Positions 15,398 through 46,944 of a stretch of DNA of 64,000 nt are shown one piece after another. Position 1 is the stretch's first letter; each line of letters opens with the position of its first letter. The translations under genes were made by a program, and so were the position numbers. Below the pieces are notes generated by a model, which worked only from the letters and a program-made list of their open reading frames with translations, had not been told where the DNA came from and searched no databases. The DNA lies in the NCBI GenBank assembly GCA_965246715.1, contig CBDFFH010000005.1, forward strand, positions 288,001 through 352,000, read 5' to 3'. The stretch comes from Chamaesiphon sp. (lineage in GTDB: Bacteria > Cyanobacteriota > Cyanobacteriia > Cyanobacteriales > Chamaesiphonaceae).

Positions 15398-16084
15398 CTA
15401 CCAGAATGCAGGTTTATGACGAATTAAACTGAGGAATTCCTCACGAGTTTTGGGATCTTCCTGAAACGCACCTACCATAGCACTCGTAACCGTCCAAGCT
15501 CCGGGCTTCTGCACGCCGCGCATCGACATACACATGTGAGTTGCTTCGATAACCACCGCCACCCCCTGGGGTGCTAACACCTCTTGAATAGCATCGGCAA
15601 TTTGACGAGTCAATCGTTCCTGTACTTGCAAACGCCGCGCATACATTTCGACAATTCGAGCGAGTTTGCTCAAACCCACCACTTTTTGGTTGGGAAGATA
15701 GGCGATGTGTGCGCGACCGACAAATGGCAACATGTGATGCTCGCACAAGCTAAACAGATCGATATCCCGCACCAATACCATTTCGTTGTGCCCTTCGTCG
15801 AACACCGCATCGTTGATGATTTCTTCCAACGATTGATGATAGCCACTGGTGAGGAATTGCATTGCTTTTGCCACTCGATCGGGTGTTTTGAGCAAGCCTT
15901 CCCGATCGGGGTTTTCATCTACACCTAAAATTAGGGTACGCACGGCATCTGCCATGTCTACTTGGCTGACTTTATAGATCGCGGGCGATTTATTGGCATT
16001 CATACCATTGAGAGAATTGCCTTTAGGTGAGGTCGATTGGGGCTGAGAACTTTTTGGAGATGAATGACGATCGGCAATAGTCAT
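15398..16084 (-). CDS. folE: GTP cyclohydrolase I
   Basis: [32 protein letters not shown]. Confidence 0.97.
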
Positions 16085-16115
16085 GATAGATGTAGATAAA
16101 GAATATGATGGCGAT

Positions 16116-16139
16116 CCGGCAAAGCCGACGCTACGCGAT
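16116..16139 (-). mobile_element. 24-nt small dispersed repeat in a HIP1-like site
   Basis: Minus strand TCG[ATCGCGTAGCGTCGGCTTTGCCGG]ATCGC. Confidence 0.75.
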
Positions 16140-16156
16140 CGAATAGCGAAAACTTG

Positions 16157-16783
16157 TTATGAATGGAGTAGTTTCTGGATCGTGCGTTCGGTTTCGGCAT
16201 AAGCTCCTTCGCCAATATGGTCGTAGGTGATATTGCCCTGACGATCTGCTAAAAATAGATGCGGCCAATATTCATTTTTGTAAGCCTGCCAAGTTTTGAA
16301 GTTATTATCGATCGCGACTGGATAGGTAATGCCCTGCCGCCGCATCGCAGCTCGAACGTTACTTATCTTCCGCTCGTAGGGGGACTCTGGCGTATGGATG
16401 CCGACTACTTTGAGTCCTTGCGCTGCATACTTACGATGCCAAGCAGTGACGTGGGGTAAGGTGCGCTGACAGTTGATGCACGAATACGTCCAAAACTGAA
16501 TCAAAGCTACGCTACCCTTGAGATCTTGGCTGGTGAGTGGGGATGAATTCAACCACTCTTGGATGCCCTGAAATTCAGGCAGAGCGTTACCTGTAGATTG
16601 AAGGGCAAGGATCTGGGTAGAATCGGCATCCAACATTGCTTTGGTATTAGCAGGATCGATTTGATGCGCCGATCCGAAGCTCCCTTCATTAGCGGTAGCT
16701 CTAAATGCAGATGTGGCTCCTGCACCCACTAAACCTAATCCTAAATACAGAATTCGTCGTCTTTGCCAGATTGACTTATCCAT
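16157..16783 (-). CDS. DipZ-like thioredoxin/redoxin with twin-arginine-like signal
   Basis: QRRRILYL, FWTYSCINC, GIHTPE, YWPH, HIGEGAY. Confidence 0.9.
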   Translation of the reverse strand: MDKSIWQRRRILYLGLGLVGAGATSAFRATANEGSFGSAHQIDPANTKAMLDADSTQILALQSTGNALPEFQGIQEWLNSSPLTSQDLKGSVALIQFWTYSCINCQRTLPHVTAWHRKYAAQGLKVVGIHTPESPYERKISNVRAAMRRQGITYPVAIDNNFKTWQAYKNEYWPHLFLADRQGNITYDHIGEGAYAETERTIQKLLHS

Positions 16784-16916
16784 TTGCTTATCTCATAAGT
16801 GGATGAAGAGTTACTAGATCGGCAGATTTCACTATTCGTTCGCGTCCCAATTTCCAGGGGGAGAGGCTCCGTCCACCAACGAGATGAGGTCGCGTAACCT
16901 GCCACCGATCTCAAAT

Positions 16917-17201
16917 CTACGGCTTGGATGTTGGCGTTGGTTTTACATCACCTTTCATAGCACCGCCCTTATCCTTCATTGCGTCGCCTTTCATAGCACC
17001 GCCCTTATCCTTCATGGCATCACCCTTCATCGCACCGTCTTTATCTTTCATGGCATCACCTTGTTGGGTAGCGTCAGGGGTTGCAGTTGGCGGAGTCGAG
17101 CATGAAGTAAGAGTAGTAGATAAGATGAGTCCAGCGAGGAGAACTAAGATTTTCCAGTTTTTGGTGCGATCGCTCCCGGCAAAAACAGTAGCTAATTTCA
17201 T
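16917..17201 (-). CDS. Methionine-rich MXKDX-type repeat lipoprotein
   Basis: Hydrophobic signal + lipobox LTSC, then 3 x DAMKDK(D/G)GAMKG. Confidence 0.8.
   Translation of the reverse strand: MKLATVFAGSDRTKNWKILVLLAGLILSTTLTSCSTPPTATPDATQQGDAMKDKDGAMKGDAMKDKGGAMKGDAMKDKGGAMKGDVKPTPTSKP
16947..17060. repeat. 36-bp tandem repeat x3 encoding the Met-rich units
   Basis: Units start at 16947, 16983 and 17019. Confidence 0.9.
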
Positions 17202-17285
17202 GGATTACTCCCGATCGATTGTCGATCGATATAATGTTTTTAAGCGAACCGAATGTGGCTCGACAATTACAGTATCTCCAACTGT

Positions 17286-17368
17286 CCTGAAACCTTTGTG
17301 AGCCAAACCCTAAAATTACCTAAATTTATTCTGAGAACGTTCTCATGCCAATCTCAGCAATTTATCAG
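17286..17368. promoter_or_regulatory. 11-bp-phased CTNAG box array
   Basis: cctgaa 17286, tgtgag 17297, cctaaa 17319, tctgag 17330, tctcat 17341, tctcag 17352, tatcag 17363. Confidence 0.7.
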
Positions 17369-17404
17369 ACTAACATTACATTCGGAATTACTACTAATTA
17401 AATT

Positions 17405-17959
17405 CTATCGATCGCGTCGTTCCAAACGCACATCAACCTCGCGTTCTACATAATCCCATTCCTTGCTCGATCGCATCCGCACGAGTAATTCATCAAATGC
17501 CTGGGTATGTTCTGGCGCAAATTCAAACCAGGTGAGAAAATCAAAGGGTTCGCCGATGTCGCGACAGTGGAGTAGCCGACGGGCAACTCCAGGCAGATAG
17601 TCCATCCCCACAGCGGTGTGATGCGACTCTTCCTCAAAAATCGCCCTTCGTTCGTCTTTCGCCATTTCCCACCATTGGAGCGATTTTTTAATCGGAATCA
17701 GCACCGCACAAATTGCGTCCGATCGATTCAATACGGGCTGAATTGCTTTTAATGCCATAACTTCATCGTGCATGGCATACCGAACATTACTGCTAAAGCC
17801 TTGGAGAATCCACGAACTATCTAATGGTAATTCCTTAATATCATCATTCACTACATCTACTCGTTCTACAAATTCTAGATTAGCACCGAAAATACTTCGC
17901 ACATCTACTACGTGCCATGTGCCTTGGTTGCCACCAATAAACGAATATCTGTTGTTCAT
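17405..17959 (-). CDS. cld: Chlorite dismutase, short (clade 2) type
   Basis: IPIKKS..WW, HHTAVG (proximal His), VARRLLHCRD (catalytic Arg), FDFLTWFEF, EWDYVEREV; 184 aa. Confidence 0.9.
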   Translation of the reverse strand: MNNRYSFIGGNQGTWHVVDVRSIFGANLEFVERVDVVNDDIKELPLDSSWILQGFSSNVRYAMHDEVMALKAIQPVLNRSDAICAVLIPIKKSLQWWEMAKDERRAIFEEESHHTAVGMDYLPGVARRLLHCRDIGEPFDFLTWFEFAPEHTQAFDELLVRMRSSKEWDYVEREVDVRLERRDR

Positions 17960-18124
17960 ATTATTCTACAAATCACTATGCACTCGATCGAGAAGTACAC
18001 AAATAATTCTAAGGTGGTTGAAATTCTCAAAAATTAATAGCAGATTAAAATTTCCGTTTATTTAAATAAGTTTTTGCTGAAAATCCCATCTGACGTTTTT
18101 AGACGATCGCGTTACTTCTGGCGA

Positions 18125-18175
18125 TCTCGATCTCATCCCATTAGCAGCATAACTGCTAATGGGATGAGATCGAGA
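18125..18175. terminator. Perfect 23-bp inverted repeat, 5-nt loop
   Basis: TCTCGATCTCATCCCATTAGCAG-cataa-CTGCTAATGGGATGAGATCGAGA downstream of tetR. Confidence 0.6.
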
Positions 18176-18251
18176 CAGAGATTGATGATTTCGCTCTGGG
18201 CACTAGAGATCGCCTCTCGATCTGTCTACCATTTTGGATCGTGAGTGCCAC

Positions 18252-18812
18252 TTAGACTGTGACTAATCGCTTTAACCGATCGGTGACTTCATCCATCAAC
18301 TCTGGACGCTTTAGGGTCACTGCCAAAATCATCGTGCCTTGCAAAGTCCCGATCGTGTGAACGGCTAATGTTGCAGCATCAGCGAGATCGCCCAATGCTG
18401 ATTCAATCCAATCGAGTAACCGGGTGAAAAATCGCCGCGCCGCTGCTGACACCGCCTCTGGTAAATCCTTCGACTCTGCTCCCAACATACAGCCCAAACA
18501 AATCATCCCGTCATTCTGCACAGCCGCTCGATAGCAGTCGCATAATCGTTGTAAATGTTCTGCTGTTGTCGAGCGGGTGAGATCCACAGCACCCAACGTT
18601 GCTAACAATTTATCGCTATAGCGATCGATTACCGCTGCACCCAGCAATGCCTTCTGCGGAAAATGGTAATGCACACTGGCAGCCTTAATTCCCACATCTG
18701 CTGCCAGATCCCGATAGCTCACGGCTTCAAATCCGCCTCGGCGAATCCGAATCTCCGCCGCCTCAAGTATTTCGATCGCCTTGTCTGAATATTCCGTTGC
18801 ATCATCTTTCAT
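18252..18812 (-). CDS. TetR family regulator, NemR-like, Cys-containing
   Basis: SYRDLAADVGIKAASVHYHFPQK; LCDC and CLGC. Confidence 0.88.
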   Translation of the reverse strand: MKDDATEYSDKAIEILEAAEIRIRRGGFEAVSYRDLAADVGIKAASVHYHFPQKALLGAAVIDRYSDKLLATLGAVDLTRSTTAEHLQRLCDCYRAAVQNDGMICLGCMLGAESKDLPEAVSAAARRFFTRLLDWIESALGDLADAATLAVHTIGTLQGTMILAVTLKRPELMDEVTDRLKRLVTV

Positions 18813-18821
18813 AATTTCAAT

Positions 18822-18890
18822 TATCTAACGTTAGATAGGGGTTGACAACCATCCATGTCTCGCCGCATAAGTTGTCTAACGAACGTTAGA
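18822..18890. promoter_or_regulatory. Two TetR operators flanking a TTGACA -35
   Basis: TATCTAACGTTAGATA (18822-18837), TCTAACG-AA-CGTTAGA (18875-18890), TTGACA 18842-18847. Confidence 0.78.
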
Positions 18891-18922
18891 TAGATAGAAT
18901 CCTTTTAGTTTGGAGAACTGCC

Positions 18923-19537
18923 ATGAAAGTCTACGAATACAAAGCCTTCCCCAACCCTTGGAGAGTCCGCATGGCTCTGGCGGAAAAAGGGTTAACCGAT
19001 CGAGTAGAATTTATCCAAGTCGATCTGCCCCACGGCGAACATAAGCAACCAGCGTTCCTGGCAAAAAATCCGGCGGGTGCTGTGCCCTTGCTGGAACTAG
19101 AGGATGGTACCTGTATTACCGAATGTACCGCCATTACCGAGTATTTCGACCATTTTACGGGCGAGCCAACTCTGACGGGTCAGAATGCCACGGAGCGAGC
19201 CACAATCCATATGATGCAACGGCGAGTAGAAGCAAATTTTTTGGATGCGATCGCCCACTACTTCCACCATGCCACGCCCGGATTGGGCTTTGAAGCTTAT
19301 CAAGTTAAGGAATGGGGCCAAAAGCAGAAGGAACAGGCGATCGCCACCCTGAACGGCTTAGATAAATTATTGGCAACTCAGCCTTATATTGCGGGCGATC
19401 GCTTTACGGTGGCAGATATTACGGCTTTGGCTGGGATTGCGTTTGGTGGCTTTTGTCAAATTACGATTCCCGCAACGGCAACTCATCTAGCAGCTTGGCA
19501 CGATCGAATGCAGCAACGACCGAGTTTTGGTGCGTAA
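18923..19537 (+). CDS. Glutathione S-transferase
   Basis: FPNPWRVRMALAEKG, NPAGAVPLL, RFTVADIT. Confidence 0.92.
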   Translation: MKVYEYKAFPNPWRVRMALAEKGLTDRVEFIQVDLPHGEHKQPAFLAKNPAGAVPLLELEDGTCITECTAITEYFDHFTGEPTLTGQNATERATIHMMQRRVEANFLDAIAHYFHHATPGLGFEAYQVKEWGQKQKEQAIATLNGLDKLLATQPYIAGDRFTVADITALAGIAFGGFCQITIPATATHLAAWHDRMQQRPSFGA

Positions 19538-19561
19538 TTGCCATGATTGATGGGGGAGAGA

Positions 19562-20230
19562 ATGATGGAACTCAATGCTGATTTTACCAAACGAGCGGTG
19601 GTGCATGGGGCGGCGATGCCTTGGCAAGCATCACCCATGCCAGGGGTGGAGCGGCGAATGCTCGATCGTATTGGAGAGGAAGTGGCACGGGCAACAACGA
19701 TCGTCCGCTATGCTCCCAAGAGCCAGTTCTCTCCCCATACCCACGGCGGTGGCGAAGAATTTTTGGTTTTGGCTGGGGTTTTTCAGGATGAATATGGGGA
19801 TTATCCGATGGGCACCTATGTGCGGAATCCACCAACATCCCGTCATACGCCAAGTTCGGTCGGTGGCTGCATCATTCTGGTCAAACTCTGGCAATTCAAC
19901 CCAGACGATCGTACCCAAGTGACGATCGATACCACGAACCAGCCATACATCGCCGATCTGACGCGGCGCGGAGTTACCACGCTGCCGTTGTTTGAAGACG
20001 ATCGAGAAACGGTGCGACTGGAAAAATGGGAGGCGAATGCTTCAATCGATTTACTCGCACCCGATGGGTTAGAAACGTTTGTACTTCAAGGTGGCTTTCG
20101 TGAGAGTGGTGATGTCTTTGAGCTTTACTCTTGGTTGCGATTGCCGCCAGATTCTCGGCTATTGGCGCAATCTGGTGCGGCAGGATGCCAAGTTTGGCTC
20201 AAGCAGTTGAGATCGAGAACTTCCTACTAA
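19562..20230 (+). CDS. ChrR-like cupin domain protein
   Basis: GVERRMLDR, HTHGGGEE, RNPPTSRHTP. Confidence 0.9.
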   Translation: MMELNADFTKRAVVHGAAMPWQASPMPGVERRMLDRIGEEVARATTIVRYAPKSQFSPHTHGGGEEFLVLAGVFQDEYGDYPMGTYVRNPPTSRHTPSSVGGCIILVKLWQFNPDDRTQVTIDTTNQPYIADLTRRGVTTLPLFEDDRETVRLEKWEANASIDLLAPDGLETFVLQGGFRESGDVFELYSWLRLPPDSRLLAQSGAAGCQVWLKQLRSRTSY

Positions 20231-20429
20231 AATCTGATGCAGAAATACAGTTAGCGATTAAAATTATCGATCGCAGTCTGAACTTGAAGTTCGCCCTAAG
20301 TTAGAAAATGCCAGTTAGAATCGATCGCACCCAAGGATGGAATAGCATCTTTAGGTATTTGTCGCGATCGCCCGATGATCCATCGCTACCACGATCGCTC
20401 AGGCTAAAATAGAAGAACAATGTCGAAAT

Positions 20430-20643
20430 CGAGTGCAACCGATTGGCTATTTGAGCGTCAGCCCGATGCTCAACCTTGGACGATTCGGATTGGTTACAGT
20501 GCAGTCTATCATTTTGGCTCCAGGAGTCTGAAAAAGAATTAATGATTTATGGAGTTGTGAATTTTCGTCATGAATTAACGCTTCCCCTTGTAGTTAGAAA
20601 CTCGAATGGGCAACGGGAGTTTTTTAATACCATGATTGACACT
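20430..20643 (+). pseudogene. Remnants of a small gene pair: ...PDAQPWTIRIG* followed by the start of a clan AA aspartic-protease-like ORF (MIYGVVN...IDT)
   Basis: Second ORF starts at ATG 20542 and loses similarity at the DT(G) motif. Confidence 0.5.
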
Positions 20644-20742
20644 ATCGTCAAAATTGAAGCACTGTGGTTGTGTTCGGAAGCGATCGAGAAAGTGCGATCT
20701 AACAGGGTTTTGATCGTCATCTGATTTCCAGGTAATATCCCG

Positions 20743-20901
20743 ATTTGGGGTGATATCCAGAAAGTTTCCGTATATCATCCTAAATTAGCGTGATATACGG
20801 AAAGTCTTTGCAGGACATAAGGCTTTTAGAGAAAATTTTTCCGTCTATCACCCCATTTGGGGTTATTATACAGAAAGTTTCCGTCTAATAAATAGTTGGG
20901 C
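20743..20901 (+). other. attI-like site with direct repeats ending in core GTTGGGC
   Basis: ATTTGGGGT..AT..CAGAAAGTTTCCGT repeated at 20743 and 20855; core at 20895-20901 complements R'' GCCCAAC of the downstream attC. Confidence 0.6.
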
Positions 20902-21097
20902 GAACGGACTGATGAAATTAAGTCTGCAAAATCATACTCAGCAGATCAACTCTAGAAGTTTCTATTCATGCTTCCCACTAGTCTGGGTAGGTTATGAACC
21001 AGATAATTCCTAAGAAACAACATATGTTAGAGTCATAATTGCTTTTCTATGCGTGAAGTAGTATTTATGTTCTAATTTATGAGGAGACAAATGGACG

Positions 21098-22252
21098 ATG
21101 CCCAAATTTTCGCTGAATATCGTTCCGGCTCATGGAGAAAAGGGTAAGCTCGAAAGCCGTTTAAATATAAATGGTCAAGTTTCTGAGGATATGGTGGCTT
21201 TTAGTCTCTGTGGAACTGAAAGTAAAAAGTTTAGCCTAGTTAGCAAAGGGTGGGGTGGCACCAATTCACAGCAATTGCTTGCCGATATTCCACTAGAACA
21301 ACTGAGTGAGCTATTTTGCTCCATTCTCATTGATATAGATCCCAAGATAGGAGATATCTTTGGGAAAATTCAGCTTGTCTTTGAGCCTTGTAAAGATAAT
21401 CTTCCTACAGGTGCAGTGTTCTGGCCATCAATACAGTTTAAAGACTGGGCAGGGCCGTTCAGCTTGCCTGTACTCTCAGACGAAATTCGTGTCAGGATTG
21501 AGGCGGGAGGTGTGGAGCCTCTGAGCTTTTGCTCAAAAGAGCCTGATACAAACGTAACAAACTTTGGGATCGCAGTTCCATTTAAGGAAGAAATAACAAC
21601 TCTCCGAGAACTTATTGAGTTCTATCGTCCGATGGTTGCAAAGCTACTGGAAGAGTGTGTACGTTCTGTCCTCGCAGAAATGAACAGGGATTCACTGGTC
21701 ACATTTTTTGAATTTCCTCAAACTGTGAGAACCGCATGTCAACAATATCTTCTGTACTTTGTGCAATTTCTTTCTGATCTGGGCATTGATGCTGATGCTG
21801 AAATTAAGGAAGATGCACAGCGTATTCTCTTTAGCGTTACGCCAAGAGATGATGGCGAAGCCTTGGAGCGCATTCAAGAAGCGCTCCAAGCATTCCTAAG
21901 CATTCCTGGTTCGAGCGCGTTTAATGACTATGCAGCGACAACTCTTGATATCGCAGGCCAGCAACTAGCCGCAAATGTCATGCACCTTCAATCGCAACTT
22001 GTACTTGCTCGTGCAATTGATCAGGCAAAAAGTGCAACAATTGAGACTTTGCAATTAGCCAATTTTCAATACCGACAAATGATGCTAGTTCAAGCACCAG
22101 ATGCCCTTCCATCAATTCCTAAAACTGTCAGTGGAACTTCTGAAAGAGAAGAGTTGATAGAGGGAGTTATTGCAATAACACCCCTGAAAGGAAACGGCTT
22201 TGAGATTAATCTCCCAAATATTCTCCGCTTGCTTAAAAGGCGCTTTCGTTGA
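21098..22252 (+). CDS. Hypothetical protein carried on an integron-type cassette
   Basis: 384-aa ORF with GAGGAG RBS, no HIP1 site seen, bounded by core site and attC. Confidence 0.8.
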   Translation: MPKFSLNIVPAHGEKGKLESRLNINGQVSEDMVAFSLCGTESKKFSLVSKGWGGTNSQQLLADIPLEQLSELFCSILIDIDPKIGDIFGKIQLVFEPCKDNLPTGAVFWPSIQFKDWAGPFSLPVLSDEIRVRIEAGGVEPLSFCSKEPDTNVTNFGIAVPFKEEITTLRELIEFYRPMVAKLLEECVRSVLAEMNRDSLVTFFEFPQTVRTACQQYLLYFVQFLSDLGIDADAEIKEDAQRILFSVTPRDDGEALERIQEALQAFLSIPGSSAFNDYAATTLDIAGQQLAANVMHLQSQLVLARAIDQAKSATIETLQLANFQYRQMMLVQAPDALPSIPKTVSGTSEREELIEGVIAITPLKGNGFEINLPNILRLLKRRFR

Positions 22253-22341
22253 TACTCTGATAACCCTACCTGATTTACCTTTAAAACATGAGCTACGATT
22301 CCAGCTTTTCTCACTCATGATCTTCATTGTCAATGGCAGCA

Positions 22342-22426
22342 GCCCAACAATTCAAATGCAGCGGACAGTTGAGAGCTGCTGGTACTGAGTTTAAGGTTTT
22401 ACCGCCGCTGATTTGAGGCGTTATGC
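22342..22426 (+). other. attC site (59-base element)
   Basis: R'' GCCCAAC; L'' TCAAATgCAGCGGaC pairs with L' GCCGCTGATTTGA leaving two extrahelical bases; R' GTTATGC. Confidence 0.82.
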
Positions 22427-22603
22427 GACTTAGACTATCGATCGATACAAATATTTGAAAATTGCCTGTCAGATATTAATAGTTAGACTTTTTAAGATTG
22501 TCGATCAGTCAGAGCTTTGGTGTCGATCGCATCCATCGTAACTAATGGTGGTAACGATAGAGAAACGGCGATCGCTCAACTACTAGATAAATTATGTTTA
22601 ACT

Positions 22604-23137
22604 TTAGAGTTCGGTGGAATGTCCACTGCCTGGGAATTCATCGGCATGAGAAAGGTCGTACTCAGCCGATCGCGCTCTGCGTTGACTCATTTTCTTGGCA
22701 TACCGATCGTAAGCAATACAGATCCACACCAGTGTCATAAAAAAAATGTTTTTATTAAAACTTTCCGCCGCATTGGGAAACAGGCTCCCAGCAGGGACGA
22801 CACCAAAGGCGAGAATGATACTAAAAGTCATCAGGATGAGTAGCAATCCCGTCCACTCGATCCAGAAATTGAACGCGAATAAGGCTCCTAACACAATTTC
22901 TGCTAATGGTAATAGCCAGCCGTAAGGCACGGCAATAAGCGCAGGCAACGGGCCAATTCCCTGCCAGCCAGCGGGGAATGGCCCCCACAATTGCAATTTT
23001 TGAGTTAGTACGGTTTGATAGAAGCCATCTTTAATACTAAAGTTGAGGTAGTTGGCAATCCCAGAGCAAAAGAAAAACAGTCCGAGTACGACACGATTGA
23101 CAGTGACAGCGGTATGAAGATTGTAGATAGATTTCAT
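22604..23137 (-). CDS. DoxX-like membrane protein
   Basis: RVVLGLFFFCSG...LPLAEIVLG, 4 hydrophobic segments. Confidence 0.7.
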   Translation of the reverse strand: MKSIYNLHTAVTVNRVVLGLFFFCSGIANYLNFSIKDGFYQTVLTQKLQLWGPFPAGWQGIGPLPALIAVPYGWLLPLAEIVLGALFAFNFWIEWTGLLLILMTFSIILAFGVVPAGSLFPNAAESFNKNIFFMTLVWICIAYDRYAKKMSQRRARSAEYDLSHADEFPGSGHSTEL

Positions 23138-23238
23138 AGCAAGATCCTCGTAGAAGAATTTTGGATTGTGGATTAAATAAGGGTGGTAGCTTTGCGTTTA
23201 GACTGAATAAAATCTAGATGCAATAGAAATTGAGATCG

Positions 23239-24660
23239 CTACTTTTTGGGTGCCATCCGATCGAGTAAAGTCGGCATCCCTGTCGAATTCATCTGTTGTT
23301 GAAACTGTGTCGGTTGGGCGGCACGCCAGATCAGTGGCGTGGCGATGAGGACTCCTGCGGCAATGGTTGCCATCCCTGAGAGCCAAGGCGTGCGACCCAA
23401 TCTGTGGGAGTGAAAAGGTTGATGCTGTTGAAAGATTTCGTCAGTCAGCCAATCGGCAGTAACTTTGACGTTACGCCAGATGGTGGGTAGTAATTCGAGA
23501 TAGGTAGCCGTGCGAACTAGATGTCCTGGTTGACCTTTGATAGGGAATTTATCGAACAGGTTGGCAACCCCTTCATTTAGCCCCAATTTCATTAAGGTGC
23601 CCCGTAGATGCACTGTAGCTGTTACCAGGGGTTTGTCCTCCACGATTGCTTGTAAATTGTAGGCGATCGCTTTACCTTGTTGATACGCAACTTGGGCGGT
23701 AGGCGGCTGCGGATCGTCACTATTAGTAGCGCAATCTCCAGCGGCAAATACTTCTGGAAAATCGGGCAATTGCAACGTCGGGATGACGAATAATCGCCCC
23801 TTGAGATCGCGATATTCTGGTTTACTAATTGGTAACTCCATCAATAACGGATGGGGTGAGGTTCCCGCTGTCCAGGCAATCGTGCCAGCTTTGATGGAGT
23901 AGGTGCGCTCGCCCCGTTTGAACTCTACTGCATCAGGATGAATGGCGGCAACTGCGGCATCGAATAGCAATTGAACACCCCGCTGTTTGAGCGCACGGTA
24001 GGCATTAGGGCGCAATTTACTATTGATATCGCCTTTGAGCAGTTCGCCGCTGCGGTTGATGAGCACTACTCTTATTTCATCGACATCGCCGCCGAGATCT
24101 TCGTACCACAGGGGCAACAAATCGCCCAAGGTGCAGGCTAATTCGATCCCCGCAGGCCCCGCGCCAATAATTGCGACTGTCAGTAACGCACACCGTTCCT
24201 GGGGGTCTGGAGTCATGACTGCTTGTCGTAATTGGGCTTGTAACCTTTCGCGTAAAGCGATCGCCTCTGCACCAGATGTCAGCGGCAGTGCGTACTCCGC
24301 CGCACCAGGGGTATCCAGATAAGTTACCTTACTACCCAATGCCAGCACCAAGCGATCGTAAGCATAATCTCGTCCAGAAGCGAGTGCCACCCGCTGGCGG
24401 TGCAAATCGATCGATTTTACAGTGTCTTGCACGAAACTAACGCCCGATTCGGCGAGCAAGTCGGCATAGCGCGGATGAACTTGGCGAGCGTGAAGTTCGC
24501 CGCTGAGTAGTTCGTAGAGGAGTGGCTTGAAACTAAATCGATCTTGTCGATCGATTAGGACGATCGGTTGTTGGTAGTTTTGGCGGCTCAGATGCAAGGC
24601 TGTAAATAGCCCGACAAAACCGCCGCCTAAGATCAGAGTTGGATTGGATTTCTGATTCAT
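23239..24660 (-). CDS. Type II NADH dehydrogenase-like FAD oxidoreductase
   Basis: GGGFVG, GAGPAGIE, WTAG, FAAGD, AQVAYQQG. Confidence 0.9.
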   Translation of the reverse strand: MNQKSNPTLILGGGFVGLFTALHLSRQNYQQPIVLIDRQDRFSFKPLLYELLSGELHARQVHPRYADLLAESGVSFVQDTVKSIDLHRQRVALASGRDYAYDRLVLALGSKVTYLDTPGAAEYALPLTSGAEAIALRERLQAQLRQAVMTPDPQERCALLTVAIIGAGPAGIELACTLGDLLPLWYEDLGGDVDEIRVVLINRSGELLKGDINSKLRPNAYRALKQRGVQLLFDAAVAAIHPDAVEFKRGERTYSIKAGTIAWTAGTSPHPLLMELPISKPEYRDLKGRLFVIPTLQLPDFPEVFAAGDCATNSDDPQPPTAQVAYQQGKAIAYNLQAIVEDKPLVTATVHLRGTLMKLGLNEGVANLFDKFPIKGQPGHLVRTATYLELLPTIWRNVKVTADWLTDEIFQQHQPFHSHRLGRTPWLSGMATIAAGVLIATPLIWRAAQPTQFQQQMNSTGMPTLLDRMAPKK

Positions 24661-24769
24661 AATTTGAGCAGAGGTACAATACCATTTGAATCTGCTGTTA
24701 GTATGACTTGAAAATCCAGGCGATGAATGATTTTGAGCTAAACATTGGCTGAGAAATTCGACCGATTAC

Positions 24770-24808
24770 ACTCATAAACTATTCAGCAATTTCTCATGAG
24801 AAACTCAG
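24770..24808. promoter_or_regulatory. 11-bp-phased box array
   Basis: actcat 24770, attcag 24781, tctcat 24792, actcag 24803. Confidence 0.68.
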
Positions 24809-24977
24809 GCTAGGAGTTTACCATTAATAATCGTAAAAATATTTTGATAAATTAAACAACCCTAGAAATATGGCTTGCAGCTATGAAATTTTACTTGTCC
24901 AAGCATAATACCTCATTCGATCGATATATTTTTCCGACATCAATTATTTACCAACTATTTATTGACTAAAATAAATT

Positions 24978-25442: not shown

Positions 25443-25501
25443 GCGAGCGTTTAGAAAGTTATGCTAGTAGTGTAAGTATTCCTAAATGCACGTTTTAGAG
25501 A

Positions 25502-36333: not shown

Positions 36334-36492
36334 AATTTCAATTAGTTAGGTTGATATCTTTAATACAGGCTCGATCGACAATTGGATTTAGTTCAAGCTA
36401 TAAAATCTACAAACTTTGATAGTTTTTTAATTAAATCTACTTATCAATTGCTGTTTGTATAATCTAAAAATAATGTGTGAAAAGATCGCTGC

Positions 36493-37554
36493 TTAGATTC
36501 CTTTAAATCCCATTCTTGCTTCGACATCATGTTTGCGCTCGATCGAGTTAACTCGCTTATTTTCTAGCCGAGCGGTACGGATCTTAATCCCTACTTGACC
36601 TAAAACTAGACCGATTAAAATGATAATCCCCCCGATATATTGAGCGCGAGTCGGTACTTCATCCAGAATGAAATAGGCAGCAAGAATGCCCACGACTGGC
36701 GTAAAGGCACCAACTATCGAGACAGTGGCGATCGAGGAATGCCGCAGCCCAGCATTCCACAATGATTGCCCCACAACGACAATAATCGTGCCGTACAAGA
36801 GCATCCATTGCCACAGAAATGGCGATAACACGCCCATAAAATGGTTGGGGCCATACATCCACAAAGCCAAGCAGAAAAAGACGATCGTGCCCAGTCCCGT
36901 GCGCCCAGTATTGTAAACGCCTAGCGGTACTCGCGCTAACCACTTTTTGGTCGCAATTGTCGCGATCGATAAAAAGACCGCAGCAAGAGTTGCTACTAGT
37001 TCACCCGATCCAGGATGAGAACCAGATGCTGGCATCATTTGAGCTTTAGCAGGCTGAAGGATGACGGTGAGGACGACACCGACAAAGGCCACGCTCGATC
37101 CGATGACTTCCCAACGGTTGACTTTTTCCCGTAACAGCCAGATCGACAAGAACAGGGTCAATGGCGGTTCCAAGCGACCGATTAGTAATACAGTCGTCAC
37201 CGAAGTTAGCGATAGTGCTTCAAAGATGAAACTCGGCCCTAATGCTGTTGCTAAGGTGGCGACAAGTAGCAATCCCAACCATTCCTGCGGCGATATTTGG
37301 CTCAGGGTCTGACGGTTCAACTGATCTCGATTGAGCGGGACTAGCACCAATAGCGCGCAGAGATTGCCGACAAACAGGACATTACAGTAAGAAATCGGAT
37401 TGTGCCCGCCGACGAAATGCTGGGCACCAATTTCGGTAATCTTTCGCGTAACGGCACTAGCAGAGCCGAAGATCGGGATCGCCAACCACAGATAGATGTG
37501 TCCGGGGATGCGCGAGGTTAAGTTCGTCAGTTGTTGGGGGAATGAGGGCATCAT
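36493..37554 (-). CDS. EamA/DMT family transporter
   Basis: ~10 TM in two EamA repeats; LLREK, ILDE. Confidence 0.88.
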   Translation of the reverse strand: MMPSFPQQLTNLTSRIPGHIYLWLAIPIFGSASAVTRKITEIGAQHFVGGHNPISYCNVLFVGNLCALLVLVPLNRDQLNRQTLSQISPQEWLGLLLVATLATALGPSFIFEALSLTSVTTVLLIGRLEPPLTLFLSIWLLREKVNRWEVIGSSVAFVGVVLTVILQPAKAQMMPASGSHPGSGELVATLAAVFLSIATIATKKWLARVPLGVYNTGRTGLGTIVFFCLALWMYGPNHFMGVLSPFLWQWMLLYGTIIVVVGQSLWNAGLRHSSIATVSIVGAFTPVVGILAAYFILDEVPTRAQYIGGIIILIGLVLGQVGIKIRTARLENKRVNSIERKHDVEARMGFKGI

Positions 37555-37580
37555 GAATATGAGGGATAAGGCTCGAATCG

Positions 37581-37604
37581 TTGGCGCAGCCTCTGGGAAC
37601 GAGA
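37581..37604 (+). mobile_element. 24-nt small dispersed repeat
   Basis: TCG[TTGGCGCAGCCTCTGGGAACGAGA]ATCGC. Confidence 0.78.
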
Positions 37605-37725
37605 ATCGCTAACCGATCTGAATTGCCAGCATACCCAGATTCTAAACTTACAATCTGAGTTTCTCCTGAGAAAGCGATTAATAATTAGGTTTCAAAATTT
37701 ATCCTAATTTCTCAGTCGATATTTA

Positions 37726-38742
37726 CAGCACTTCCGTTAGTCATGAGGTACGCCAAAAGATAGTAAAGATACATTCAATAATGAAAGCATTTTCAGTCGA
37801 TCTTCGAGAAAAAATAGTTGCGGCACATCTCGATCGCCATCACTCAATTAGAGCGGTTGCTAGCATATTTACTGTTAGCAAAAGCTTTGTCCAAAAGCTA
37901 GTCAGACAACATAAGCTTGAAGGAAACTTACAGCCTAAAAAGCCAGGTAAACCACGATTAAGTTACCTGACAAATGCTGAAGTAGAGTTAAGAGAATTAG
38001 TTGCCGAACATCCCGATGCAACTTTGGCTGAACTGTGTGAATTTTTCGCTGATAAAACTGGCAATTGGGTTGGTCGAAGTGCCATGAGTGACGCATTACG
38101 AAAATTAGGCTTAAGTCGTAAAAAAAAACGGAAAGGAGCACCCAAGCTACAACAGAAAGAGTCCTAAATTTGAGAGTAGATTATTGGGAATCGGTTAAAA
38201 ATATCGACGTGAAAAACTTAGTGTTTTTAGATGAAACTGGTATTCTGCTTGGTTTAGCCAGAACTCATGCTCGGTCACAGCGGGGAACAAGAGCATATAC
38301 TTTTACCCCATTCTATCGAGGTGCAAAAGTTACCGCTATCGGCGCAATTAGCATTGAAAAAGTTGTAGCATTGATGACAATGGATAATTCAATGGATAGT
38401 AGAGCTTTTGAATTATTTGTTAAGGATTTTCTAGTGCCGGAGCTATGGCCAGGTGCCGTTGTCGTAATGGATAATTTATCCTCACACAAATTCGATTCCA
38501 TTATCCCAATGATTGAAGCTGTCGGTGCTTCTGTTATTTTCCTCTCCCCATACTCACCTGATTTTAACCCAATTGAGTTATGGTGGTCACAGCTCAAGTC
38601 TTTTTTACGAATGTTTTCACCTGCTACGACAATTATGGTGGATAGAATAATTTCACTTGCAATTGGGTTAATCGATCCTCAACATCTCAGAAATTGGTTT
38701 ACTAATTGCTGCTATTGTACCTCGTAACAACCGGAAGTGCCG
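37726..38742 (+). mobile_element. IS630-family insertion sequence (ORFs 37781-38167 and to 38727, -1 frameshift at A9, 38120-38128)
   Basis: TA duplication (37724-25 / 38743-44); IRs CAGCACTTCCG..GAGGTAC; DETG, MDNL, SPDFNPIE. Confidence 0.94.
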
Positions 38743-38943: not shown

Positions 38944-40365
38944 ATGAAACCCTTCGCTAAACTCCAGGAGAGATTCCATCAAATCAAGCAGCGGCATCTC
39001 GACCCAGCTTCACTCCAGTTTCGACTCACTCTCGAAGTATCGCTGTTGTCAATCCTCGGGTTGAGTAGCGTTGCCGCTTGGACGAGTTGGAAAATGCAGC
39101 AACTTTTAATTACCACGCATACTCAGCAAGTCGAGTACATTGCCAATCGGTTTCCGCGCGATGTCGAACTTTATAGCGGTATGCTGCCAGTTAACGAGGG
39201 ACTACAAAAAACAATCGATAATGTCTCGGTACCAGGATTAGCAATCTGGGTCAAAAATCCCGATGGCCAACAGATTCTGGCACAGTCGAGTAAAGTGAGT
39301 GCCGAATTGATGTCGATCGCCCAGATGCCACTCCAGCCGCAGGTTTATCGAGTTGGAGATCGCTATCTAATTTTGTATCGAGGGGATCTAACGGCCAAAA
39401 ATCAGCCGCTGGGTAAGGTGTACATGTCACAGGATGTCACTACCGAGCAATACCAACTAATTACCGCCATTCAAGGTCTCACTGCCGTTTGTATTTTAGC
39501 AACCCTCTTTACTATCCTGGCGATCGCCATCCGGATTCGCCGTTCGCTCCAACCTTTGCAGGAGATGAGTCAGATGGCGGGGGCGATTTCTGCCGCAGAT
39601 CTAAATAACGCGCAATTGCAATTGAATAACGCTCCAACTGAAGTTAAGGAGTTAGCCCAAGCTTTTAATCTCATGCTGTCGCGGTTGGGGGATACTTGGG
39701 AGCAACAACGGCAGTTTATCGGTAATATTTCCCATGAGTTACGCACGCCATTAACAGTGGTATCGGGCTATCTTCAGAGCTTATTACGTCGGGGTAATAA
39801 CCTCAATGATTACCAACGCGAAGCCCTCGAAACAGCCGGAGCCGAAGCAGATCGTACCATCAATCTACTGCAAGATTTACTAGATTTGGCACGAGCGGAT
39901 AGTGGTTATACTCGTTATCATTTAGAACCGTTATTGTTGAACGAATTAGTGACAGAAGTAGTCGATATGACCGCAAGATTTGGCGAGCGATCGATTCAAG
40001 TTGTCGCAACAGAAAATGTTGAAGCGATCGTCGATCGCGAGCGATTGAAACAGGTATTAATCAATCTCTTAGATAATGCGATTAAATATTCAACAGCAAC
40101 ACAACCGATCGATTTGATTATCGAACAACACGATAAACAGGCAATTATTCGCATTCGCGATCGCGGAATTGGGATTCCGCTGCAAGATCGGGGGCGGATT
40201 TTTGAACGCTTTTATCGAGTCGATAAAGATCGCGCCCGCACGACTGGCGGCTATGGATTGGGATTGGCGATCGTCAAAACACTCGTAGAAGGGATGGGTG
40301 GTAAAATTATGGTGCGTTCGACAGTAGGTGAAGGGAGCGAGTTTACGATCGCCTTCCCTAAATGA
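38944..40365 (+). CDS. Membrane HAMP sensor histidine kinase (OmpR-partner type)
   Basis: 2 TM, HAMP, SHELRTPL, NLLDNAIKY, FERFYRVD, GLGLAI. Confidence 0.93.
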   Translation: MKPFAKLQERFHQIKQRHLDPASLQFRLTLEVSLLSILGLSSVAAWTSWKMQQLLITTHTQQVEYIANRFPRDVELYSGMLPVNEGLQKTIDNVSVPGLAIWVKNPDGQQILAQSSKVSAELMSIAQMPLQPQVYRVGDRYLILYRGDLTAKNQPLGKVYMSQDVTTEQYQLITAIQGLTAVCILATLFTILAIAIRIRRSLQPLQEMSQMAGAISAADLNNAQLQLNNAPTEVKELAQAFNLMLSRLGDTWEQQRQFIGNISHELRTPLTVVSGYLQSLLRRGNNLNDYQREALETAGAEADRTINLLQDLLDLARADSGYTRYHLEPLLLNELVTEVVDMTARFGERSIQVVATENVEAIVDRERLKQVLINLLDNAIKYSTATQPIDLIIEQHDKQAIIRIRDRGIGIPLQDRGRIFERFYRVDKDRARTTGGYGLGLAIVKTLVEGMGGKIMVRSTVGEGSEFTIAFPK

Positions 40366-43310: not shown

Positions 43311-43438
43311 GGTTTGGGTTTAGCGTTGGCGGAGCCTACCGGAGGTAATCGTCAAACGGATTGTCGAAGCTCACGATGGGGAGTTGCGGATTGAGTCGGG
43401 TGAGGCGATTGGCTCGATCGTCACAGTTCAACTGCCGC
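43311..43438 (+). repeat. Duplicated 3' end of the kinase gene (copy of ~42403-42508) with a 22-nt element at 43326-43347
   Basis: Shared ATCGTCAAACGGATTGTCGAAGCTCACGA...GGCTCGATCGTCA; GCG[TTGGCGGAGCCTACCGGAGGTA]ATCG. Confidence 0.9.
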
Positions 43439-44112: not shown

Positions 44113-44130
44113 ATAAGAACGGGATTTAAT

Positions 44131-44607: not shown

Positions 44608-44692
44608 TACGGTGGGTATTATTTTAGTCTCCATCCAATCGCTCCTACTGCCAATTCCTGCCACGATCGCAATTATCACATTTACCAACATA

Positions 44693-45367
44693 CTACTCCC
44701 GCAATGAATAACCGACCCCCCGTGCAGTATGAATCAATCGCTTTTCATTATCCTGTTCTAACTTTAATCGCAGATAGCGAACGTAGACCTCAATAATATT
44801 TGAGTCTCCCAGAAAGTCATACCCCCAAATATTTTCGAGAATTTGGTCTCTGGTAAATACCTGACGCGGATGAGTCATTAAGTATTGCAGAAGATCGAAT
44901 TCTTTAGCGGTTAAGTCGATCGATCTTTGCCCCCGATGGACTTCACGAGTGCGGCGATTTAAGATTAAATCTTCAAACTGCAATAGATCGACATCCGTTT
45001 CCTGCGTGCGCCGCAAATGAGCGCGAATTCTAGCTAATAGCTCCTCAATACTAAACGGTTTAACCAAATAATCATCGGCTCCCGCATCTAAACCTGTCAC
45101 GCGATCGCCGACTTCATCTCTAGCAGTTAGCAAAATCACCGGAATCTTAATTCCAGTAGATCGCATCCTCCGACAGAGTTCGACACCAGTTAAACCGGGC
45201 AACATCCAATCCAAAATCGCTAAATCTGGCTCCGATTCACGTACCAAAGATAGTCCAGTCATGCCGTCGTGTGCCACGCTGACGCGATAGCCTTCACTCC
45301 CCAATTCCAGTTCGATAAAGCGGGCGAGTTTGACTTCATCTTCAACTAATAGGATATGTGCCATCAT
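44693..45367 (-). CDS. OmpR/PhoB family response regulator
   Basis: LLVEDE, LDWMLP, GADDYLVKPF, winged helix with HTARGVGY. Confidence 0.95.
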   Translation of the reverse strand: MMAHILLVEDEVKLARFIELELGSEGYRVSVAHDGMTGLSLVRESEPDLAILDWMLPGLTGVELCRRMRSTGIKIPVILLTARDEVGDRVTGLDAGADDYLVKPFSIEELLARIRAHLRRTQETDVDLLQFEDLILNRRTREVHRGQRSIDLTAKEFDLLQYLMTHPRQVFTRDQILENIWGYDFLGDSNIIEVYVRYLRLKLEQDNEKRLIHTARGVGYSLRE

Positions 45368-45421
45368 CTGTGTTTCCTTCATCTCGCGTGTGCCCATCAC
45401 TCATTATCTGTGGTCGGACGG

Positions 45422-46156
45422 TTATTTAGGCATGTTTAGAGCTGGAGCTGACTGCACGGTACAAAGCTTTTTGTCGCACTGCTGCTCGTAGAGCTTTTCC
45501 ACGTAGGGTTTTTGCCAAGCCAGAGGAACTTCGAGTAACGCCTGGGTGCCAGTAAAAGCTTGCCCGATAAACAGTAGCAACGCCAACGAATTTAAACTAA
45601 TGTGAATATTCCGCCAGCGATTGGTGCGATCCTGATAAATTTCTCTGACGATCGCCAGGGAAAAAATCATTAAGATCGCCGCAGTAATCCCATAATAGTA
45701 ATGGGAAATATACCACTGTTCTGTTTTGCGATAAACACCATCCTGACTGCCGATAACGATGAGCGCAACGCTGGTAAGGATGGCAAATACTACCCGCCAC
45801 AGTCTAGTTTTAGCACGATAAAGTAATACTAGCGACCCGATCGCTGCTGCAAATACAAAACTAATTAAGATGACCTGAAATGGATTGTGTGCCCATAATT
45901 TCTTATCGACAATATTACCAAATACATCATTGGCAAATGCTAATAAAACGATACCCACTACCGCACCTGTCAACCACCGACCTAATTGAGCATGTTCTGG
46001 CCCCGCGCTGGGTGGAATGGCACTTTTCTTGCCTGTGGACACTTGTAACCGCCGCTGACGAGTTTGGAGCGCACGATTCATCACCATGCCAAGTAACGGA
46101 AATACTACAGTGATAGCAATGAGTGGATGTAACAATAAGATCGTATCTCTATTCAT
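45422..46156 (-). CDS. His-containing membrane protein (DUF4079-like)
   Basis: LLHP, EHAQLG, SHYY, NIH in TM helices. Confidence 0.7.
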   Translation of the reverse strand: MNRDTILLLHPLIAITVVFPLLGMVMNRALQTRQRRLQVSTGKKSAIPPSAGPEHAQLGRWLTGAVVGIVLLAFANDVFGNIVDKKLWAHNPFQVILISFVFAAAIGSLVLLYRAKTRLWRVVFAILTSVALIVIGSQDGVYRKTEQWYISHYYYGITAAILMIFSLAIVREIYQDRTNRWRNIHISLNSLALLLFIGQAFTGTQALLEVPLAWQKPYVEKLYEQQCDKKLCTVQSAPALNMPK

Positions 46157-46418
46157 GAAAACCTCCCGATCTTGCTTAATATTTAGGGGTAAATAATTCT
46201 TGTAAGTCGATCTAAAATAAGCACAACCCAACCCAAAAAATTTATGTTGTTTAATAATTCCTATGTTTAATACCGATCGACGACAGTAGGCTCTACCAAC
46301 ACCAATGCATCAAATTTAAGCAAAGTTAAAGGGGTCAAGAATCGAGATCTGTTCTTTCGCCTCGATCCCCTCAAACTAAAGCATTCATCCTCAGAACGGC
46401 ACCTAGCAAGTTAGAATA

Positions 46419-46784
46419 TTACTTAACTTCACTTGCTAAAAATGCAGTTATTCTACCTTTTTTGACCGCAACTACCACATCGTAAGTAGCACAATAGGAG
46501 AAGGTGACATTATTGGCTTTGTTGTATAGATTGACGACCATACCTGCGCCACCAGGTTGAACTCCCAGCGGTTCGAGATCGCCATAGAAGAACCGACGTA
46601 GCTGGTCGCCACCACCGATCTGACCCTTGTTTTTAGTAATTAAACTGATTTTTTCTTGGACGGAGGGGCCTTCAGCCGCACTGGCAACTATCCCGATCGA
46701 GGGCGCGAATGTCCCAGGTGTAATATGACCGACAGTAACTAAGCCCAACATTGCAACACTTGTAACCAAAGAAGTTAATTTCAT
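46419..46784 (-). CDS. Hypothetical secreted protein
   Basis: N-terminal signal-like segment; 121 aa. Confidence 0.7.
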   Translation of the reverse strand: MKLTSLVTSVAMLGLVTVGHITPGTFAPSIGIVASAAEGPSVQEKISLITKNKGQIGGGDQLRRFFYGDLEPLGVQPGGAGMVVNLYNKANNVTFSYCATYDVVVAVKKGRITAFLASEVK

Positions 46785-46861
46785 AGAATTTCTGGTGAAT
46801 ATCGATAGAATGTTTTTCAGCAGAACCCAATTGGCTCACTGAATCAACTATCGCAGCTACC

Positions 46862-46944
46862 ACTGAAAGCACTCTGAACTTAGCCGATCGATTTCCTGAA
46901 TTTATGCTGAAATTCTCCTTAGTTAAATCTCAGCAATTTCTCAG
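46862..46944. promoter_or_regulatory. 11-bp-phased CTNAG box array
   Basis: actgaa 46862, tctgaa 46873, cctgaa 46895, gctgaa 46906, ccttag 46917, tctcag 46928, tctcag 46939. Confidence 0.75.

Follow-up and report, generated by a model that had tools for sequence, protein, structure and literature searches.

A direct-repeat operator predicted to tie methionine sulfoxide repair, and in many cyanobacteria chlorite dismutase, to a widespread two-component pair

The MrpX-YedY cycle has been described in Azospira, and the sections of PMC4436054 devoted to it report that mrpX is induced by chlorite and hypochlorous acid (HOCl) and not by hydrogen peroxide (H2O2), give 10 cyanobacterial entries in the horizontal gene transfer (HGT) clade of YedY, and consider that kinase systems possibly run parallel to SigF. 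Met72 and Met153 of the kinase HprS matter for HOCl signalling, and the reaction of methionine with HOCl is far faster than that with H2O2, according to the relevant parts of bioRxiv 2021.09.09.459708. A feed of periplasmic methionine sulfoxide reductases (Msr) by a DsbD-core protein and thioredoxin has been proposed in the text of PMC3420878. Chlorite dismutase (Cld) is called highly specific for chlorite in the text of PMC9751292, and what cyanobacteria without perchlorate respiration gain from retaining the enzyme is an open question. Among two-component systems, ManSR is treated in PMC7020235, and Rre28 is presented in the part of bioRxiv 2026.06.09.731130 that covers it as an NblR-like, high-priority regulator of undefined function. 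We analysed a 64,000-nucleotide stretch of a Chamaesiphon genome (the window; positions 288001-352000 of contig C5 of genome G000; G and L labels denote surveyed genomes and loci, and C numbers the contigs of the window genome), in which cld lies among genes for methionine sulfoxide repair. We report a new operator which, on well-supported sequence evidence, appears to connect this repair module with a two-component pair that is widespread and uncharacterised; in many cyanobacteria it appears to connect cld with the pair as well. An initial annotation of this DNA had proposed a defence against reactive chlorine that recycles envelope methionine. Every gene it named is present where it had placed it. 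Its opinion that such a combination had not been described in a cyanobacterium does not hold, as the supplement of PMC4436054 already lists Cyan7822_1372 of Cyanothece 7822 with mrpX, msrA and thioredoxins. It had overlooked the operator, as well as an ECF41-type sigma factor (14459-15313), two insertion sequence (IS) remnants and the paralogous clusters described below.

The operator is a direct repeat with a period of 11 bp, CTGAGAA-N4-CTGAGA, first noticed by eye in upstream regions; we call a copy of it a box. With a matrix trained on 8 sites from beyond the window, we detected 10 sites of at least 14 bits in a 31.6-kb span, all intergenic, against 0.35 expected (200 shuffles gave a mean of 0.35 and a maximum of 2 sites). 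In the window, boxes lie upstream of the gene for a Met-rich lipoprotein, ndh2, msrA, eamA and the gene for a 121-aa protein. An unbiased repeat search recovered the element as three 58-nt copies (family D2) before the Met-rich gene, msrA and the 121-aa gene, and 12 of the 17 intergenic near-matches in the genome fall in the C5 island or its paralogue on C13. Our literature search, made mostly by titles and abstract starts in largely open-access literature, found no published description of this operator or regulon. The sites are:

17320-17377, minus strand: operator cluster of three tandem sites (16.7, 21.5 and 15.0 bits), overlapping a sigma70-like -35 element; repeat family D2; kept in L010 and G403
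18065-18083, plus strand: degenerate operator upstream of cld, 7.6 bits against 13.9 in L010, at the box position of relatives
24777-24820, minus strand: operator between ndh2 and a divergent SnoaL gene (16.8 and 15.8 bits; matrix; repeat family I1)
27042-27122, strand unassigned: operator cluster upstream of msrA and a divergent araC gene (24.8, 17.8 and 17.1 bits; matrix; repeat family D2)
46896-46953, minus strand: operator cluster heading the 121-aa gene, the DUF4079 gene and the regulator gene (22.9 bits; matrix; repeat family D2)

The Met-rich operator overlaps a promoter-like TTGGCA-17-TAAATT, a kind of site no commoner than in shuffles. A 10.7-bit site upstream of cld was discarded, as it sits inside a perfect 23-nt hairpin (18125-18175).

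We compared cld loci of other organisms. As can be seen from the row below, the window gene encodes a short protein, and all of K92, H114, R127 and E167 are kept in it, which we take to be the distal Arg (R127), the proximal His (H114) and the Lys/Glu network of the catalytic site. By sequence the product is a short, ~185-aa clade 2 chlorite dismutase, predicted to turn chlorite into O2; inspection revealed no export leader.

17405-17959, minus strand: short-type (clade 2) chlorite dismutase gene cld, product predicted cytoplasmic; E 4e-89 to the solved short-type Cld 5k8z

A box of at least 12 bits within 300 bp upstream of cld was found at 10 of 21 cyanobacterial loci, compared with none of 58 loci outside the cyanobacteria and 0.47% of 4484 regions taken as background. 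These 10 boxes share a single orientation (opposite) and lie at 68-138 bp. Metagenomic cld loci had a box in two of the three closest cases and in none of four more distant ones, and in G404 and G424 a boxed 121-aa gene precedes cld, both lying on one strand. On a Kovacikia plasmid, which was out of sample, boxes head the Met-rich, trx, ccdA, msrA, cytochrome b (cytb) and YedY genes in one run. In 3 Nostocales genomes a box lies in the divergent promoter of eamA and the 121-aa gene. In G202, G352 and L024 a box also stands upstream of the kinase gene, as it does upstream of the regulator gene in G125. Separately, we noted boxes between arsenite methyltransferase-like and GUN4-like genes (labels by eye) in three genomes (L176, L180 and L289).

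The two-component pair and the genes next to the regulator are:

38947-40365, plus strand: HAMP histidine kinase, predicted to partner the regulator, with a PDC-fold sensor in the periplasm (Pfam)
44693-45364, minus strand: OmpR-family response regulator, predicted to bind the operator; best NCBIfam model NblR, 285 of 300
45422-46231, minus strand: DUF4079 membrane protein (PF13301)
46419-46784, minus strand: 121-aa secreted protein of an unnamed cyanobacterial family, a recurrent box target, with one invariant Cys

Close relatives of the regulator occur in at least 84 of 400 genomes, a lower bound as 7 candidates were scored per genome. In 177 genomes of the class, strict matches to the operator were present in 33 of the 84 regulator-positive and 22 of the 93 regulator-negative genomes, with 64 and 26 sites, respectively (9 and 12 for reversed controls); two or more strict sites were seen in 18/84 versus 4/93. 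At the 29 best regulator loci the kinase gene is adjacent in 16, with DUF4079 in 5, the 121-aa gene in 3 and the molybdenum (Mo) enzyme in 1. The pair does not qualify as HprSR by profile: the regulator reaches 185 of 353 with the HprR model, and no HprS model is among the best 25 for the kinase. In length, Cys position and termini, which were the features compared, the regulator fits Synechocystis Rre28 rather than ManR and is probably Rre28-like; another regulator of this genome, on C42, shares the C-terminal residues of Rre28. In the sensor of the kinase, M50 is kept in 28/31 sequences, H58 in 26/31, M79 in 26/31 and M127 in 23/31, in an alignment rich in close kin. The family of the 121-aa protein comprises 1102 homologous clusters, with no Pfam domain on the 120 listed. 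Its confident small alpha/beta model gave a weak OsmE/BLIP-like match (Z 5.6, root-mean-square deviation (rmsd) 3.9, 72 aligned), no Foldseek match at E 0.001, and in the ESM Atlas just unnamed clusters below 0.9. As a side observation, a 96% paralogue of the regulator gene (G000:C13:15103-15800) is interrupted after ~160 codons and resumes in another frame.

The repair module and the genes that run with it are listed here (export leaders were judged by inspection of the sequence):

15398-16084, minus strand: folE, second GTP cyclohydrolase I copy, at the end of the Met-rich run; over the NCBIfam cut-off, 79% to the C21 copy
16157-16783, minus strand: exported TlpA-type thioredoxin 1 with CINC and a twin-Arg leader (Pfam Redoxin/AhpC-TSA)
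16917-17201, minus strand: Met-rich lipoprotein, MrpX-like, predicted sacrificial Met sink; lipobox C34
22604-24660, minus strand: type II NADH dehydrogenase (ndh2) and DoxX/MauE-like membrane protein, boxed (Pfam)
25502-26020, minus strand: MsrB with a twin-Arg leader; over the TIGR00357 cut-off; Thr at the resolving-Cys position (GTGWPSF)
26076-26834, minus strand: MsrA with a hydrophobic leader; over the TIGR00401 cut-off; sole cysteine C84
33613-34314, minus strand: twin-Arg translocation (Tat) lipoprotein Mo enzyme, YedY/MsrP-like short type; closest solved relative YedY 1xdq; CVEGW motif
34441-35040, minus strand: cytochrome b561-type membrane partner (PF01292; 6 His)
35072-35764, minus strand: CcdA, DsbD beta-type transmembrane electron carrier (PF02683; C24 and C134 in SPCVLP and TPCAGP)
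35761-36333, minus strand: exported thioredoxin 2 with CINC and a twin-Arg leader (family profile, Cys list)
36493-37686, minus strand: EamA transporter, with an upstream operator of 18.2 bits at 37654

The Met-rich lipoprotein has 94 aa; its mature part of 61 aa holds 6 Met in GDAMK repeats and no His (10% Met, 33% charged). It gave no family match, TIGR02953 (the MXKDX-repeat family) included. Its likeness to MrpX, assumed earlier, is borne out by a paralogue at C5:246682 that passes TIGR02953 with 43 bits against a cut-off of 41, and homologues of this small exported peptide, rich in Met and charged residues and placed beside yedYZ-type genes, occur in 8 of 10 ccdA loci. folE also lies downstream of the Met-rich gene in G403 and G424, where a DM13 gene occupies the position of thioredoxin 1.

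The genes for thioredoxin 2, CcdA, cytochrome b and the Mo enzyme run head to tail from 36333 to 33613. The Mo enzyme, which the initial annotation had called MsrP-like, scores 103.8 bits against a cut-off of 207 with the NCBIfam model of MsrP, and so falls short of the housekeeping MsrP profile. The label is right in that the protein is of the YedY type of MrpX operons: it shows the traits of the YedY HGT clade (Azospira YedY1 type), namely a Tat leader, Cys-x-Glu, a cytochrome b partner and relatives in MXKDX operons, and is 37% to a plasmid relative in a locus of the MrpX type (SigF, DUF1109, MXKDX peptide, cytochrome b, Mo enzyme, msrA, msrB). moaA is present in the genome. Tat substrates of cyanobacteria may end up in the thylakoid lumen instead of the periplasm. 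All 10 ccdA loci taken together have cytochrome b and the Mo enzyme in 9, the Met-rich gene in 8 (7 by clustering, L097 by BLAST) and msrB in 3.

Both Msr enzymes lack a resolving cysteine and so differ from the two-Cys, PilB-like kind. MsrA of this type has one Cys in its mature part in 4/4 copies, as does the Microvirga MsrA, and MsrB reads GTGWPSF in 8/8. The passages of PMC8945050 on recycling give GCGWP as the resolving motif of MsrB, and state that an intramolecular disulfide serves to recycle most Msrs, and other thiols certain one-Cys enzymes. Recycling through CcdA and thioredoxin would therefore require direct reduction of the sulfenic acid. The earlier suggestion of recycling through CcdA, thioredoxin and MsrA/B thus keeps its genes and loses the textbook thioredoxin mechanism. 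Genes of the ndh2/DoxX type are also found near cld in L010 and L019 and are boxed in G403; a possible role would be to feed electrons to the quinone pool. Taken as a whole, the repair module (Met-rich peptide, thioredoxin, CcdA, cytochrome b, YedY-type enzyme, MsrA/B) is of a known kind. We also observed, at C5:224501-227505 and in L291, genes for a thioredoxin, a thioredoxin reductase, a second CcdA type and an exported thioredoxin with NPCA repeats; the latter two are boxed in G068.

The trx-ccdA-cytb-YedY operon of the window has no box. We searched upstream regions with a matrix built from eleven ATCC-N16-CGTA sites, all from loci of other genomes with a pair of extracytoplasmic function (ECF) sigma factor and RskA-type anti-sigma factor, and obtained two candidates in the window:

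36362-36389, minus strand: candidate ECF promoter of the trx-ccdA-cytb-YedY operon, rank 3 of 4820 upstream regions
26924-26951, minus strand: weak candidate ECF promoter (ATCC-N16-CGTA) of msrA, rank 23 of 4820, 11.0 bits

The paralogous trx operon on C13 has a site of rank 1 of 4820 at the same distance from the start, and of all candidates the two trx-operon sites alone are regarded as good. C1 encodes an ECF/RskA pair of this kind (48% and 33%), and at 6 of the 10 other ccdA loci an ECF sigma gene, paired with RskA_C, and the promoter take the place of the box. ECF control of the trx-ccdA-cytb-YedY operon here, in trans from C1, and of the whole module in other cyanobacteria is likely on these comparisons. 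Three results speak against it: both trx-operon sites read TGTA, the C1 sigma gene has no site before itself (rank 1515), and the strict pattern is unenriched across the genome (10 sites at spacer 16, compared with 3, 12, 5 and 11 at others), for which reason the promoter was dropped as a genome-wide signal. The Met-rich gene has the box in G000 (3 genes), L010, G403, L093, L094 and Kovacikia, and the ECF promoter in L090, L091, L092, L096, L097 and L098, so that box and ECF promoter are mutually exclusive there and read as interchangeable controls on the same module. The initial annotation had favoured two-component over ECF control; for the Met-rich gene and msrA this is supported by their shared operator, and it is too strong in view of the trx operon and the six ECF/RskA loci.

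We analysed the surroundings of cld. The closest relative of the window gene (93%) is in Chamaesiphon, a genus in which 4 of 27 genomes have cld. Across the phylum, 400 other genomes included 8 with cld and 10 with this ccdA. The gene neighbourhoods of 26 cyanobacterial cld loci contain the Met-rich gene in 1, msrB in 3, msrA with cytochrome b and the Mo enzyme in 1, and a DM13 protein in 7. The initial annotation had proposed gene neighbourhood across cyanobacteria as a check; conserved adjacency of cld and the Met-rich gene was rejected, as it is seen at 1/26 loci, only in Chamaesiphon, with one more genome of the genus. Thus, the repair module is conserved and its physical linkage to cld is not. 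No cld-bearing match was among the 20 matches listed in plasmid DNA searches. The initial annotation had also counted TetR and GST of the following genes as part of the system:

18252-20230, strand unassigned: TetR (C105xxC108), glutathione S-transferase (GST) and ChrR-type cupin (Pfam); no box of at least 12 bits; 82-91% paralogue on C55 without cld

With no box and a cld-free paralogue, TetR-GST-cupin is probably a separate electrophile/oxidant module. TetR has 4 Cys, C105xxC108 among them, and no NemR model among its 8 NCBIfam matches; C105xxC108 may align with the redox Cys of NemR (C-terminal GCL-type motif).

Further observations were made around cld. The DM13-domain secreted proteins lie near it in L010, L019, L024, L025, L027, L028 and L105, and their genes are boxed in 5 of 8 cases scored; the window has none, thioredoxin 1 being at their place. 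Genes for GH63, amylo-alpha-1,6-glucosidase, a GMC oxidoreductase, a short-chain dehydrogenase/reductase (SDR) and an aquaporin recur beside cld and boxed (L017, L018, L019, L102; G000:C5 248-287 kb). A DUF417 (RclC-like) protein is encoded at C5:256107-256616 (L187) and a pyridine nucleotide-disulfide oxidoreductase at 261327-262673 (L188); orthology to RclC and RclA was rejected on scores below the cut-offs (80.8 of 275 and 269.5 of 740, respectively). A CLC chloride channel gene is at C5:235997. A PAP2-superfamily protein (window 58399-59643, minus strand) has vanadium bromoperoxidases as its best solved relatives (E 4e-11) and a strict match to the ECF-type promoter; were the protein a haloperoxidase, it could be an internal source of hypohalous acid, 12 kb from the regulator.

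The explanation of all this that we rank best, holding it at about even confidence, is that the methionine-defence genes share an operator bound by the OmpR/HAMP-kinase pair and induced by oxidant, most likely reactive chlorine. Its parts differ in strength. A shared two-component regulon is highly probable, methionine redox cycling as the purpose of that regulon is probable almost to the same degree, and reactive chlorine as the main signal hangs in the balance. The kinase would sense oxidant via its conserved periplasmic Mets, as E. coli HprS is thought to do; the phosphorylated regulator would bind the tandem boxes at the -35 element and induce the Met-rich lipoprotein, msrAB, ndh2-doxX, eamA, the 121-aa protein and itself; in many cyanobacteria it would also induce cld. 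The lipid-anchored Met-rich peptide may be oxidised sacrificially and be re-reduced by two routes, from quinol through cytochrome b to the YedY-type enzyme, and by the single-Cys MsrA/MsrB, whose sulfenic acid would be reduced directly by CINC thioredoxins fed by CcdA. Cytoplasmic Cld would remove chlorite, and the ECF sigma, held by its RskA-type anti-sigma, is a likely second input to the trx-ccdA-cytb-YedY operon.

A possible, though distinctly weaker, alternative keeps the same regulon and the Met cycle, and takes the signal to be envelope damage or oxidation in general (from H2O2, singlet oxygen, high light or drying), with cld a passenger taken up by a few lineages. The greater spread of the regulator (84/400 genomes versus 8/400 for cld), the ccdA module without cld at 10/10 loci and the boxes before glycoside hydrolase and other non-redox genes all fit it, as does the Bradyrhizobium EcfF regulon (msrA/B, DsbD-core protein, thioredoxin), described as H2O2-inducible in the text of PMC3420878. 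It accounts poorly for a box before cld in several genera, given the specificity of Cld for chlorite and the slow reaction of Met with H2O2 cited at the outset. We consider it unlikely that the system senses metal (Cu/Ag, or as a ManSR paralogue), with His and Met of the kinase binding the metal, the peptide acting as a Cu(I) sponge and Msr keeping it reduced. Indeed, the best model for the kinase is a heavy-metal sensor family (243 of 292.55 bits), H58 is frequent in its sensor, whose fold resembles CusS (Z 10.4, rmsd 3.5, 124 aligned), and the box resembles the boxes of Mn transporters. However, WalK fits the fold as well (Z 11.2, rmsd 3.3, 124 aligned), 0/11 mature Met-rich peptides contain His, and no metal efflux pump stands behind a box in the loci examined. 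Mn-type boxes precede Mn transporters in four genomes, yet each of the 12 cld-linked and 10 window sites scores higher with the new matrix than with the Mn matrix, and no new-type box was found at nramp or znuA/mntC of this genome; on these grounds we rejected membership in the ManR regulon. Less probable still is that there is no single system, and that unrelated stress cassettes gathered in a plastic island with a repeat left from duplicated promoters. The IS remnants, recombinase, broken genes and many paralogues, the separate TetR-GST-cupin genes, and the location of the island on the chromosome here and on a 447-kb second contig in G403 would suit this; a box before non-homologous genes (Met-rich, msrA, ndh2, eamA, 121-aa, DM13, msrB, cld) in distant genera would not, and therefore promoter duplication is no explanation.

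A number of results weigh against a chlorine-responsive methionine-defence regulon. The box of the window's own cld is degenerate (7.6 bits), 11 of the 21 main-set cld loci and four further ones (L102-L105) have none, and cld and ccdA occur together in just 1 genome, on different contigs (Fisher p 0.38). The regulator is ten times commoner than cld, and boxes also precede glycoside hydrolase, methyltransferase and PEP-CTERM-like genes, a range broader than chlorine defence. Many strict matches are noise: of 30 loci, 8 are inside open reading frames (ORFs) and 9 at genes of the set, and of 12 and 16 further loci examined 6 and 7, respectively, had boxes at set genes. Some genomes of other classes without a regulator match (E 1e-85) have several strict sites (7 in G097, 5 in G004), and Mn-transporter boxes score 12.9-14.8 on the new matrix. 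Kin are not independent in the regulator/box tests, so the p-values are overstated, and the kinase Mets are not invariant in their alignment full of close kin. The H2O2-inducible Bradyrhizobium regulon counts on the same side. Apart from this, other f35 genomes besides G097 and G004 likewise hold several strict box matches. Mn-type boxes were also seen before GDT1/UPF0016-like and mntCAB-like genes (labels by eye; G000:C19:13865; L285-L288, L290), which suggests that ManR may also control GDT1/UPF0016-like genes.

The chlorine reading has a bolder form, which we put forward as tentative and doubt more than we believe: the Rre28-like pair may be the cyanobacterial sensor of reactive chlorine, a counterpart of HprSR that arose independently and is carried by about half of the genomes sampled in the class, with its operator repeatedly placed before cld, Met-rich sinks, Msr, DM13 genes and the unnamed secreted family, and swapping with the ECF/RskA promoter. 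If it were true, cyanobacterial Cld would gain a physiological context, and freshwater and terrestrial cyanobacteria would routinely meet HOCl or chlorite at the envelope. The operator ties the question of why Cld is kept to Rre28; as a testable prediction it offers the site to be bound, the target genes and residues that may do the sensing, and it suggests candidate roles for DM13 proteins, DUF4079 and an unnamed family of more than 1000 clusters.

The genome has 6.1 Mb, and C5 is taken as chromosomal from genes reading as dnaE, lysS, ligA and dnaX on it, on which ground a plasmid location of the island in G000 was rejected. The island extends beyond the span noted initially, with paralogous clusters at C5 224-288 kb and on C13, C4 and C55. 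The C5 cluster has two more Met-rich genes with msrB-msrA, a second trx-ccdA-cytb-Mo enzyme operon and a second kinase-regulator pair; most parts have 68-96% paralogues on C13, C4 and C55, and cld is single-copy. In G403, a genome of the same genus in three contigs, much of the island is found in similar order on its second contig. Contigs from two sequencing runs of unrecorded kind cover 30/30 bins of 15000-28000 and are uninformative on expression. Other features of the window are:

13832-15313, plus strand: FMN-dependent azoreductase-like gene and ECF41/SigJ-type sigma gene, converging on folE
28084-28835, 37781-38727, 47294-48286, 30643-31983 and 43348-43437: features of a plastic region (two IS-like remnants, a tyrosine recombinase, a fragmented 4Fe-4S/SCP2 gene and a duplicated kinase tail)

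One IS-like remnant seems to interrupt an AraC gene and a DJ-1 gene. No link between the ECF41 sigma and the module was found.

Compared with known systems, the locus is close in content to SigF-NrsF/YedY1Z1/MrpX of Azospira suillum, as the main description of that system has it, sharing a Met-rich exported peptide, a short YedY-type enzyme with cytochrome b, thioredoxins, and msrA/B nearby. It differs in that the peptide is a lipoprotein with 10% Met (20% in MrpX), control is by the OmpR box or ECF/RskA, and Cld is short and cytoplasmic; no SigF or DUF1109/NrsF gene was found among the ORFs scanned, a search limited to the window. With E. coli HprSR (YedVW)-MsrPQ it has in common a HAMP kinase with periplasmic Mets and an OmpR regulator over an envelope Met-sulfoxide reductase; it is not orthologous by profile, its cytochrome partner is of the Ni_hydr_CYTB type, and its regulon is wider. 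The Bradyrhizobium EcfF-OsrA regulon likewise unites three Msr genes, a DsbD-beta-core protein and a membrane-anchored thioredoxin, under another sigma/anti-sigma pair, H2O2-inducible and with no cld in Table 3 of PMC3420878. Barnum and Coates (2022) found MsrA, MsrB, GST, cupin, ECF sigma, kinase and OmpR regulator all linked to Cld, and the sections of PMC9751292 consulted name no operator, DM13, DUF4079, 121-aa protein or cyanobacterial regulon. Mn-transporter boxes of ManS/ManR share the 8+3+8 layout and similar half-sites with our operator, the second half-site being CTGA here and ATGA there, and the targets are others. ManR has 234 aa and other termini than the window regulator, according to the cloning data of PMC4361706, whereas Synechocystis Rre28 (sll0396), with 224 aa, Cys65 and compatible termini as read from the cloning primers of that paper, resembles it.

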